Positions 27,001 to 30,000 of a stretch of 64,000 bases of DNA are shown piece by piece (positions within the stretch are counted from its first letter, which is position 1; each line of letters starts with the position of its first letter). The DNA lies in assembly GCF_024502345.1 (NCBI RefSeq), contig NZ_JALDNN010000003.1; one strand, written 5' to 3'. The position numbers are program-made. This DNA comes from Escherichia coli (GTDB taxonomy: Bacteria; Pseudomonadota; Gammaproteobacteria; Enterobacterales; Enterobacteriaceae).

Positions 27001-30000
27001 CCTCGACCGTCAGTTGGGTTGCTGTAGGGATATTTTACCAAAGTCGGCTCTCTGGCTAATAAGTAAGAAGTGATTTTTTTCATTCATTGAAGTTTCTTTC
27101 ATATGGAATGAATATTAATTATTTAAACTGACTCGGCCTATTTTAATTATTATTAATCAGGGTATTTAATGTGCAAATTGGCAGGGCGCTGAATTACCGG
27201 GCATCCATTGCCCGGACAGTTTATTAAAAAAAACTGATAATGCCCCGCCGGAGAATTACGCCAATTCCTGTGAAGGCATGGTCTGGCTGAAAAGTTACTT
27301 TTCCCGGTTGCCCTGCCTTGATCCCGTATCGTTTATACCGGTCTGCTCTTACATCCTACCTGGGCAGCAGCTGGCTACGGTGATCGGGTATTAAAATAGA
27401 ACCGGTCTGTTTTACCGCAGATTCAACGCCCCGCACCTAGCGTAAAATCGCCTTTCCCGGATGCCCTCCTTAGTCGTCCGGCACGATGGCGCTACTCCCA
27501 GCGATAAGGGGTAAAATAGTCCTCGTTAACAGCAAGAAATTCGGTCAGGGAATGCATCGCCTTCGTGTCATATGCCGTCACAATAAAACGGTATCCGTCC
27601 ACCGTTTCGATGTAGCTGATCCCCCGTGGCGTGCAACTGGATTTCACAACTTCCGCCGTCATCATAAACTGCCCTTGCGGGAATTCCGGTGACAGGTAGA
27701 TAAAGCCAGTGGTGGCTGATGACGGGTTGGCATTCATCAGCACGCTGTTAAATTGCTTTCCGTGCCGCGCCGGAATCAACGCGCTCCCCGCTGTCGCCTG
27801 AGTCATCAACTGGCGGATCAGGGTTTCCTCTTTATCTGAGCTGTAGGCGCGAACATCATTTTCAGCCCCGGAGCGTGAGTAGACGCCGACATGAGCAAGA
27901 CGTCGGTACTCGTTACGCATATAGGCATGACAGGATGCACCGGCTCGCCCCTGAAGAGTGACGCCAAAGTCTTCACATAACATCAGTACCTGGCGCAGGT
28001 TTTTGTCATAGACCGTGGCAGAGAGCGCCAGGTTATAGCTGATGAATGTCAGCTCAAAAACCCGGGTATGTGCGTCACTAAGGTGTGCCTCCATGCGGAT
28101 CACTGGTTTCTCCGTCATTGGAAACGGCGTACCGGCCAAGCAGTACGAGGTAACATCGCTAAAACACTCGTCGATCACACTGGCAATGACCGTATCGGCG
28201 TCAATGACAGCCGGAGCTGGAACATAAATCTGAAACTGTCCTTCAGTGCCCGGTTGGATCAGGACGGGGTATAGACGCGGGGAATTGAGTTGTTCGCAGT
28301 CGGCATTGATCAGTTCTGTCCAACCGGGTTTTCCGGTGGGAGCATCAAGGCGAAGACCCAGGTTATCGCAGAAGTCGACGATCTGGCGGGAGTGCTCCAC
28401 CATCACTGCCCCGGAGAGTGTCAGACCGTGCGTAACCATCTGCATCTCACTCGTCCGGGTCTGGGAGTTCTGGGACCAGGGCTGTAATGAAAGCGTCGTC
28501 CGACTTAAGGAGGGAATGATGGTTTCATTCAGAGGTTCAATAAGCTGGCAATGCGCATACAGCCGGGTGGCGAGGAAGTCAAATATGAAGCTTGCCTGTT
28601 GTTTTGTGCTGGCCTGAATATAAAACATCGCATCCATGCCTGAATCCCGGGATGAAATACCGGGTGATGCTGCCAACTTACTGATTTAGTGTATGATGGT
28701 GTTTTTGAGGTGCTCCAGTGGCTTCTGTTTCTATCAGCTGTCCCTCCTGTTCAGCTACTGACGGGGTGGTGCGTAACGGCAAAAGCACCGCCGGACATCA
28801 GCGCTATCTCTGCTCTCACTGCCGTAAAACATGGCAACTGCAGTTCACTTACACCGCTTCTCAACCCGGTACGCACCAGAAAATCATTGATATGGCCATG
28901 AATGGCGTTGGATGCCGGGCAACAGCCCGCATTATGGGCGTTGGCCTCAACACGATTTTACGTCACTTAAAAAACTCAGGCCGCAGTCGGTAACCTCGCG
29001 CATACAGCCGGGCAGTGACGTCATCGTCTGCGCGGAAATGGACGAACAGTGGGGATACGTCGGGGCTAAATCGCGCCAGCGCTGGCTGTTTTACGCGTAT
29101 GACAGGCTCCGGAAGACGGTTGTTGCGCACGTATTCGGTGAACGCACTATGGCGACGCTGGGGCGTCTTATGAGCCTGCTGTCACCCTTTGACGTGGTGA
29201 TATGGATGACGGATGGCTGGCCGCTGTATGAATCCCGCCTGAAGGGAAAGCTGCACGTAATCAGCAAGCGATATACGCAGCGAATTGAGCGGCATAACCT
29301 GAATCTGAGGCAGCACCTGGCACGGCTGGGACGGAAGTCGCTGTCGTTCTCAAAATCGGTGGAGCTGCATGACAAAGTCATCGGGCATTATCTGAACATA
29401 AAACACTATCAATAAGTTGGAGTCATTACCGAAATACCGAAAAGTTTCATTTTTTACCTTAATGGATGAGCGATTTATAATCATGCGCCGACAGGTGGAC
29501 GTTATGTACGCCATCGTTCCACTCAAAGAATAGCCGATATTTTGAATTAACTCGAATGGAAGAATACCGGTTTGCGGTCATTCTTAAGCGTTCGTACCGC
29601 AAACTACCAGATAACAATTCGCGTTCGTTTTTAACATTATTTAACGTTTCCAGTCTGCATGAAATCGCATTAATCAGTTCAGCAGGAATGCCTGCCGTGG
29701 ATTTTCCATTACGGAAAAACTTTTCCAATCGCCTGTCTTTAAATGAATGGATCATATTTTCCTCCGTAACGAAATGAGTTTAAATAAATAAGAATTAAAA
29801 AAGCCTAAATCTAATTTATTACATCCCGAGGATTCTGGCTGCGACCGTCAGTTGTTTATCACTTAATGGAAATTTGCGTGATAACGTCGACTTCAGGCTG
29901 TTCAAAAAACTGTTCTCGCCGTCTTGCTGCGTGATGGCGTCCACCAGTTCTTGGTGGTTCTGACACCAGAGGTTGAACGCGGAAGTCTTTGATTGAACAG

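Follow-up and report, generated by a model that had tools for sequence, protein, structure and literature searches.

HigB-HigA, the toxin-antitoxin system described for plasmid Rts1 and Proteus vulgaris, pairs a HigB toxin (PF05015) with HigA, an XRE-type antitoxin of approx. 100 amino acids (aa) that carries a helix-turn-helix (HTH) domain (HTH_3). Here, we describe a HigB-like toxin gene and its two neighbours in a 64,000-nucleotide (nt) stretch of Escherichia coli DNA (contig NZ_JALDNN010000003.1 of assembly GCF_024502345.1; hereafter, the window), in which the insertion sequence IS1 lies next to the toxin. The locus resembles HigB-HigA in the fold family of the toxin, which keeps the equivalents of R73, D90, and Y91 (32% identity), and in its order, with the toxin gene first and the partner starting a few nt past the toxin stop codon; both are plasmid-borne. 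In contrast to HigB-HigA, the partner is an acidic protein of 393 aa without an HTH and not a HigA of approx. 100 aa (hhalign probability below 1%), the toxin has Glu in place of H54, Lys in place of H92, and a 5-residue C-terminal extension, and an extra conserved gene is located upstream.

Several other described systems share some of these properties. Omega-epsilon-zeta of pSM19035 and PaaR2-PaaA2-ParE2 of E. coli O157 also consist of three conserved genes, and regulation may be separate from neutralisation in both these systems and the locus described here; in particular, ParE2 belongs to the same RelE/ParE superfamily as the present toxin. Unlike in these three-component systems, the order of genes would be regulator-toxin-antitoxin, and the first gene encodes no recognisable DNA-binding domain; moreover, the proteins share no sequence similarity, and roles at the present locus are assigned by inference only. 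The toxin-antitoxin-chaperone (TAC) systems (HigB-HigA-SecB-like) likewise contain a HigB-family toxin in a three-gene operon, whereas the locus in the window has neither HigA nor a SecB-like protein and instead encodes, besides the toxin, a zinc-ribbon protein and one of 393 aa whose fold is unknown. MqsA is a zinc-binding antitoxin of a RelE-fold toxin, and a RelE-fold toxin with a putative zinc-binding partner is also found here. However, MqsA follows its toxin and has an XRE HTH, whereas the upstream zinc-ribbon gene of the window, up155, precedes the toxin and encodes a basic protein with no detectable HTH.

A conserved three-gene cassette without HigA

The HigB gene of IncHI plasmids is routinely listed as part of a HigBA system or as an orphan toxin. 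Our analysis shows it to be one of the three genes of a cassette that is kept by IncHI-family plasmids, in which the toxin is accompanied by two uncharacterised, IncHI-restricted proteins and by no HigA. The toxin gene is already annotated in RefSeq. In the window, which is part of an IncHI resistance plasmid, the cassette and the insertion that interrupts it comprise the following features:

29819-30286, minus strand: up155, encoding a basic protein of 155 aa; first gene of the conserved three-gene cassette
29756-29818, minus strand: up155-toxin spacer of 63 nt, with GGAGG 5 nt before the toxin ATG
29459-29755, minus strand: HigB-like toxin (RelE/ParE superfamily) of 98 aa; intact open reading frame (ORF) with a PF05015 match
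29431-29450, minus strand: severed 5' stub of the 393-aa gene, located by reconstruction, with its ATG at 29448-29450
28663-29430, plus strand: IS1, 768 base pairs (bp), with insA and insB; a simple insertion transcribed in the direction opposite to the operon
28718-28993 and 28912-29415, plus strand: insA and insB, respectively, both with strong Pfam matches
28654-28662 and 29431-29439: the two copies of the target duplication, an exact 9-bp direct repeat, GAAATACCG
27492-28662, minus strand: body of the 393-aa gene, codons 8-393, in the frame restored by removal of IS1

The uninterrupted locus is found at 99.9% identity in 215 plasmids of PLSDB and 107 E. coli records and at 80-90% identity in 58 more PLSDB plasmids, and an IS-free locus is present in 108 records of complete E. 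coli genomes. In R27, the IncHI1 prototype, RefSeq calls the 393-aa form of the downstream protein, and both the toxin (WP_000581856.1) and the upstream protein are identical to those of the window. Moreover, five diverged loci, whose 393-aa homologues are 62, 56, 51, 39, and 32% identical, exhibit the same gene order: a zinc-ribbon protein of 155-169 aa, a spacer of 29-63 nt, a 98-aa toxin, a spacer of 8-15 nt, and a protein of 391-396 aa. One of the five has a rearranged neighbourhood and still preserves the trio. The up155-toxin segment is contiguous in all 111 E. coli records and in 272 of 274 PLSDB plasmids, and at least one of the two non-contiguous records reflects a break at the record origin. 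All three genes are under purifying selection, with ratios of nonsynonymous to synonymous substitution rates (dN/dS) of 0.03-0.19 (0.03-0.17 for the toxin family, approx. 0.1 for the zinc-ribbon family, and 0.13-0.19 for the 393-aa family). The cassette is self-contained and is kept in hosts of many genera; every context examined is an IncHI-type backbone with large Ig-like proteins of the RSP type and an N6/N4 methyltransferase. No functional study of the cassette was found in the literature.

Relatives of the toxin were sought in 100,044 species-representative genomes. The scan recovered three IncHI-clade loci, with toxin identities of 90-94%, each having the 393-aa gene 8 nt downstream. The toxins of this clade are isolated, since identity is at least 61% within it and at most 44% outside. 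In all 77 relatives from outside IncHI, the ORF next to the toxin encodes 90-128 aa, and 75 of these ORFs match HTH_3. A small XRE/HTH_3 gene (approx. 90-130 aa) directly downstream of the toxin is the hallmark of canonical higBA; in the cassette, the next gene encodes 393 aa and no HTH, and HigA is absent from the site downstream of the toxin in every IncHI relative. When compared with a HigA profile, the 393-aa family yields an hhalign probability of 0.4%, and both IncHI neighbours of the toxin remain below 1%. Furthermore, none of the 217 ORFs of 55-170 aa in the window has an XRE/HigA-type HTH according to Pfam. It is firmly established that the IncHI clade never had HigA at the downstream position. 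A hidden small antitoxin was also considered and rejected, because neither the small ORFs located beside or antisense to the toxin nor the 217 ORFs of the window encode such an HTH.

The HigB-like toxin

A preliminary description of the window, made from the sequence alone, had recognised the HigB pattern in the 98-aa protein, and the profile searches agree with it. The toxin matches Pfam PF05015 (HigB-like_toxin) over residues 4-90 of 98 (E 3.3e-16, 60 bits at a cut-off of 27), PHROG 3066 ('toxin of TA system'; E 1.8e-18), and the solved structures of P. vulgaris HigB (4mct/4ypb/4px8; E 3e-5 to 1e-4, 32% identity). The gene in the window is 100% identical to the reference at the nucleotide level, and its product is the R27 protein WP_000581856.1. 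Across the IncHI clade, the C-terminal catalytic half of the toxin is almost invariant, and the net charge of orthologues ranges from +5 to +8. It is therefore firmly established that the toxin is a real, conserved member of the HigB family.

In P. vulgaris HigB, residues H54, D90, Y91, and H92 are critical, and R73 plays a supporting role (PMC5027501). The IncHI-clade toxins keep R74, D92, and Y93, and they have E55 at the position of H54 and K94 at that of H92, throughout the clade. Glutamate at the H54 position is found in at least 10 of the 77 relatives from outside IncHI, and the two closest canonical relatives, L017 and L019, share the H-x-Y-K C-terminus; the L017 toxin was confirmed to precede an HTH_3 ORF. 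Because the same states occur in relatives followed by HigA, E55 and K94 are best regarded as clade-wide states and not as lesions, and the toxin, which may be catalytically competent, does not appear to be decayed.

The spacer upstream of the toxin contains a single-nucleotide polymorphism (SNP) at position 29807, where the window has A and the references have G. No PLSDB or E. coli record matches this spacer segment at 100%; the same base as in the window is present in the lineage L009/L010 (see below), in which both the toxin and the partner gene are frameshifted. A terminator or promoter effect of the SNP was considered and rejected, as neither allele folds significantly, the promoter scan was empty on the minus strand, and another lineage has the same base.

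IS1 interrupts the gene at the antitoxin position

The element adjacent to the toxin exhibits all the features of IS1, namely a length of 768 bp bounded by terminal inverted repeats, the insA and insB frames, and a target duplication of 9 bp; the probability that a 9-bp repeat flanks IS1 by chance is approx. 4e-6. The insertion itself is an ordinary event, comparable to classic polar IS1 insertions within operons in its 768 bp, insA/insB content, and 9-bp duplication, with nothing unusual about it. The distance between the toxin stop codon (29459-29461) and the target duplication is 19 nt, close to the 20 bp first reported. Within the gap that separates IS1 from the toxin lie the start codon of the 393-aa gene (29448-29450) and its first 6.7 codons; thus, this gene is interrupted by IS1 and not preceded by it. 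Upon in silico removal of IS1 and one copy of the duplication, ATGAAACTTTTCGGTATTTC is joined in frame to the long ORF on the far side, and the restored ORF encodes a 393-aa protein that begins with MKLFGISSRDSGMDAMFYIQ and whose ATG is located 8 nt past the toxin stop. IS1 removed no DNA; it is a clean insertion in codon 7. The preliminary description had placed a 380-aa gene without an HTH beyond the IS: the lack of an HTH stands, and the gene is really the interrupted 393-aa gene. The accompanying claim that IS1 sits where the antitoxin would be is misleading, because IS-free relatives (approx. 270 PLSDB plasmids and 108 E. coli records, R27 among them) have the 393-aa gene at this site and no HigA. 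It is firmly established that IS1 is a secondary, clean insertion in the gene that holds the antitoxin position.

The same junction was found neither in PLSDB (72,556 plasmids) nor in 5,426 complete E. coli genomes; the insertion is thus a private and probably recent event. The insertion leaves the 393-aa gene separated from its start codon and ribosome-binding site and no longer coupled to toxin translation; the toxin and zinc-ribbon genes are untouched. The severed stub now runs into IS1, and its translation gives a 13-aa peptide. IS1 insertions are strongly polar; therefore, expression of the gene body downstream of IS1 is probably much reduced. In-frame restarts of the interrupted gene are available at a TTG (28676, inside the end of IS1) and at the ATG triplets of codons 13 and 16.

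A second IS1 copy is located at 12425-13192, in inverted orientation relative to the copy at 28663, from which it differs at 6 of 768 positions. Its flanks, TTAAATTTG and GAAAATAAA, do not form a target-site duplication; this points to a deletion or rearrangement mediated by IS1 at this location.

Proteins encoded on either side of the toxin

RefSeq (WP_223417145.1 and WP_000765097.1) uses two starts for the downstream protein, giving 381 and 393 aa. The MKLF N-terminus of the longer form is kept in homologues down to 32% identity; this conservation supports the 393-aa over the 381-aa start as the real one and, with it, the location of IS1 in codon 7. The 393-aa family is small and comprises 17 clusters at 90% identity and one relative at 32%. 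The protein has no HTH and no match in Pfam, NCBIfam, or PADLOC, and an informative relative in sequence or fold was not found. Many RefSeq records name it 'flavin reductase', others 'hypothetical protein'; the former name is unsupported, as neither a flavin reductase profile nor a flavin mononucleotide (FMN)-binding split-barrel fold was matched.

The 393-aa protein is acidic (isoelectric point, pI, approx. 5.3), and its net charge ranges from -4 to -13 in 11 of 12 orthologues. Residues 17-110 and 149-241 are a tandem duplicate of one module of approx. 95 aa (hhalign 95.7%, E 9e-9), and module B has a pI of 4.5. Residues approx. 290-393 form a separate, highly conserved C-terminal domain. Stand-alone versions of this domain, 118-145 aa long, are encoded by other mobile elements and found among phage families without known function. 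In the window, this domain carries a private substitution, G310S (nt 27746), at the nearly invariant glycine of its F-x-G-V motif. The substitution is absent from every reference copy examined and is consistent with relaxed selection on the 393-aa gene after the IS1 hit.

The C-domain family is itself unannotated. Its members have approx. 130 aa (proteins P0031-P0053, loci L011/L012; PHROGs 11960, 2063, and 8840, function unknown) and share the motif G-x-x-F-D-G-V-L ... Y-I-E-T-x-x-G-x-R-Y-L-I ... N-x-x-Y-F ... W-S.

The product of up155, the third conserved and co-oriented gene, which is always present, carries a DnaJ-like CxxCxGxG...CxxC zinc ribbon at its N-terminus, and its C-terminal half is helical. 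The protein is strongly basic, with a pI of 9.4 (9.4-9.8 in the family) and a net charge of +10 to +13. The family is confined to IncHI backbones, and its gene lies upstream of the toxin in all diverged loci. Matches to the DnaJ zinc finger are weak and sub-threshold; beyond this motif, neither neighbour of the toxin matches a SecB or chaperone family. No recognised DNA-binding family was detected in up155, and a weak match to the zinc part of Q-like antiterminators hints at DNA binding. Among solved structures, up155 has no match to MqsA.

Natural mutants of the cassette

In several records, the 393-aa gene is disrupted; the state of the two genes is as follows:

This window: 393-aa gene with IS1 in codon 7 and the private G310S; toxin intact
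pCP53-mcr: 393-aa gene cut by IS26 after approx. residue 259; toxin intact
Enterobacter hormaechei, chromosomal copy (and a second sample): 393-aa gene kept only to residue 205; toxin intact
p99COLEC-1: 393-aa gene wholly gone, in an ISApl1-associated deletion ending approx. 3 nt past the toxin stop; toxin intact, with H3Y
E. coli lineage L009/L010 (GCA_051478715.1, ERR1789872): 393-aa gene frameshifted at residue 97; toxin with a +1 frameshift in a T-run at codon 12

Two independent truncations, which keep residues 1-205 or approx. 1-259, thus coexist with an intact toxin. The genome of p99COLEC-1 contains, by counts, no second copy of the 393-aa gene. The H3Y allele is widespread elsewhere alongside an intact partner, and the substitution was therefore rejected as a compensatory mutation. 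These records show that complete loss of the 393-aa gene is tolerable with an unmutated toxin gene. In L009/L010, where the zinc-ribbon gene is intact, the toxin and its partner may have decayed jointly; the two assemblies of this lineage may share the same reads. The numbers of natural mutants are too small for statistics, and the coexistence of natural 393-aa knockouts with an intact toxin is compatible with more than one candidate neutraliser.

Possible function of the cassette

The preliminary description had offered three options for the toxin: loss of the antitoxin and inactivity, an antitoxin elsewhere, and a non-canonical partner. The last of these is favoured by the evidence, since the 393-aa gene starts 8 nt past the toxin stop in IS-free copies and also follows the toxin in diverged IncHI copies. 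We tentatively prefer, while giving it somewhat less than an even chance, a reading of the cassette as a partner-swapped and possibly three-component toxin-antitoxin module, in which the 393-aa protein is the putative neutraliser and the zinc-ribbon protein the putative regulator. Partner swapping among toxin-antitoxin systems is well documented (PMC10440598). Further points in favour are the position of the 393-aa gene, where 75 of the 77 relatives outside IncHI have an HTH_3 ORF, the purifying selection on all three genes, the opposite charges of toxin and partner, the two truncations that spare the N-terminal part of the partner beside an intact toxin, and the lineage with frameshifts in both genes. 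According to the proposed mechanism, the canonical HTH antitoxin HigA would have been replaced in place by the 393-aa protein in an ancestor of the IncHI clade. The basic toxin would be bound and neutralised by the 393-aa protein, probably via its acidic, duplicated N-terminal modules, and the zinc-ribbon protein would provide the nucleic-acid-binding regulation that normally comes from HigA. The resulting module would have three components, like omega-epsilon-zeta or PaaR-PaaA-ParE. The IS1 allele of the window might be tolerated in one of two ways: the TTG or ATG restarts could still yield a near-full-length partner, given read-through or transcription from IS1, or expression of the toxin could be held low through repression by the zinc-ribbon protein.

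Several observations weigh against this proposal. The tolerated loss of the 393-aa gene argues most strongly against the 393-aa protein as the sole antitoxin: p99COLEC-1 lacks the whole gene and yet has an ordinary H3Y toxin allele, and in the window the partner has lost its start and acquired G310S with the toxin unchanged. Moreover, the 393-aa protein resembles no known antitoxin, its C-domain occurs as a stand-alone protein in contexts without a toxin (two contexts, based on precomputed Pfam hits), and two residues critical in P. vulgaris HigB are missing from the toxin (H54 to E and H92 to K). In addition, all members of the family reside in related IncHI backbones, so that common descent could account for part of the conservation of gene order.

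The natural mutants also speak for a doubtful alternative, in which up155 is the real antitoxin in an antitoxin-first order, as in most type II systems, and the 393-aa protein is an accessory (a sensor or modulator) or unrelated cargo whose loss is harmless. The toxin remains intact in several records with a truncated, deleted, or interrupted 393-aa gene; up155 remains contiguous with the toxin in the E. coli and PLSDB records counted above, is intact in the window, and belongs to a family as restricted and conserved as that of the toxin. However, up155 is strongly basic, as is the toxin; it lies 29-63 nt from the toxin and is uncoupled from it, and it resembles neither HigA nor, among solved structures, MqsA. 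Furthermore, the canonical relatives of the toxin all carry the antitoxin downstream, and the counts of disruptions are too few for significance.

It is rather unlikely that the cassette is not a toxin-antitoxin system at all. In that case, the HigB-fold protein would be non-lethal or regulatory, acting, for example, in conditional mRNA cleavage during conjugation or plasmid establishment, and the trio would serve another IncHI-specific process. The unchanged toxin next to a deleted or interrupted downstream gene would fit such a role, as would the clade-wide substitution of two residues critical in P. vulgaris HigB and the fact that C-domain relatives on mobile elements and phages are found within arrays of small hypothetical genes. 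The cassette also sits among transfer-region genes, beside RSP-type Ig-like proteins, which have been reported to be required for IncHI conjugation (PMC6764697). Nevertheless, the E and YK states are likewise seen in relatives that precede an HTH_3 HigA, the catalytic half of the toxin is almost invariant, and the tight spacing between the toxin and its partner is typical of higBA operons.

The remaining two options of the preliminary description fare far worse. That the antitoxin was lost via the IS1 event, leaving the toxin as an inactive remnant, is very improbable: the interrupted partner with its private G310S does suggest relaxed selection, but IS1 removed no DNA, no IncHI relative has HigA at the site, the toxin is 100% identical to the allele of R27 and hundreds of plasmids, its family is under strong purifying selection, and E55 and K94 also occur in HigA-paired relatives. 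Cross-neutralisation between related modules has reportedly been discussed in the literature, and the toxin does tolerate loss of its neighbour; however, neutralisation in trans by a HigA-type antitoxin encoded elsewhere on the replicon or chromosome is just as hard to credit, as the window offers no XRE/HigA-type HTH among its 217 ORFs, the self-contained cassette is conserved across hosts of many genera, and the toxin is at most 44% identical to any HigA-paired toxin.

Returning to the preferred partner-swapped module, a more specific form of it can be proposed, which we consider unlikely but worth stating: the acidic 393-aa protein, with its duplicated N-terminal module, its C-terminal domain carried by phages and plasmids, and without any detectable relative in structure, may belong to a previously undescribed class of protein antitoxins or sensor-antitoxins directed at a HigB-type RNase and, with the zinc-ribbon regulator, form a three-component addiction or defence module found only in IncHI resistance plasmids.

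IncHI plasmids, which include R27-type plasmids and large carriers of mcr-1 and extended-spectrum β-lactamase (ESBL) genes, rank among the major vehicles of antibiotic resistance, and the functions that keep them stable could serve as targets. If the 393-aa or the zinc-ribbon protein neutralises the toxin, a new type of antitoxin would join the partner-swapping network, and the misleading RefSeq name 'flavin reductase' would be corrected. The IS1 allele of the window, pCP53-mcr, and p99COLEC-1 are ready natural mutants for establishing which neighbour matters.

Other features of the window

The cassette is flanked by two ORFs of approx. 800 aa on the minus strand, and further genes were noted near the cassette and elsewhere in the window:

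22260-24689 and 35214-37598, minus strand: ORFs of approx. 800 aa
31107-31922 and 32072-32848, plus strand: adjacent paralogous genes of 271 and 258 aa, respectively
9974-10129, minus strand: ORF of a Hok/Gef-family type I toxin

The ORFs of approx. 800 aa are the counterparts of the RSP-type Ig-like proteins. A Big_3_2 match is present in the window, and genes of this length located by the cassette in related loci carry DUF4165/Big_3 domains. The paralogous pair (32% identical, E 1e-44) has no family match and is conserved beside the cassette in R27 and related plasmids. The type I toxin is 73% identical to Hok; it represents a further, separate system of post-segregational killing on this plasmid segment. 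ORFs with DUF5431 and DUF3085 also lie in the first half of the window.

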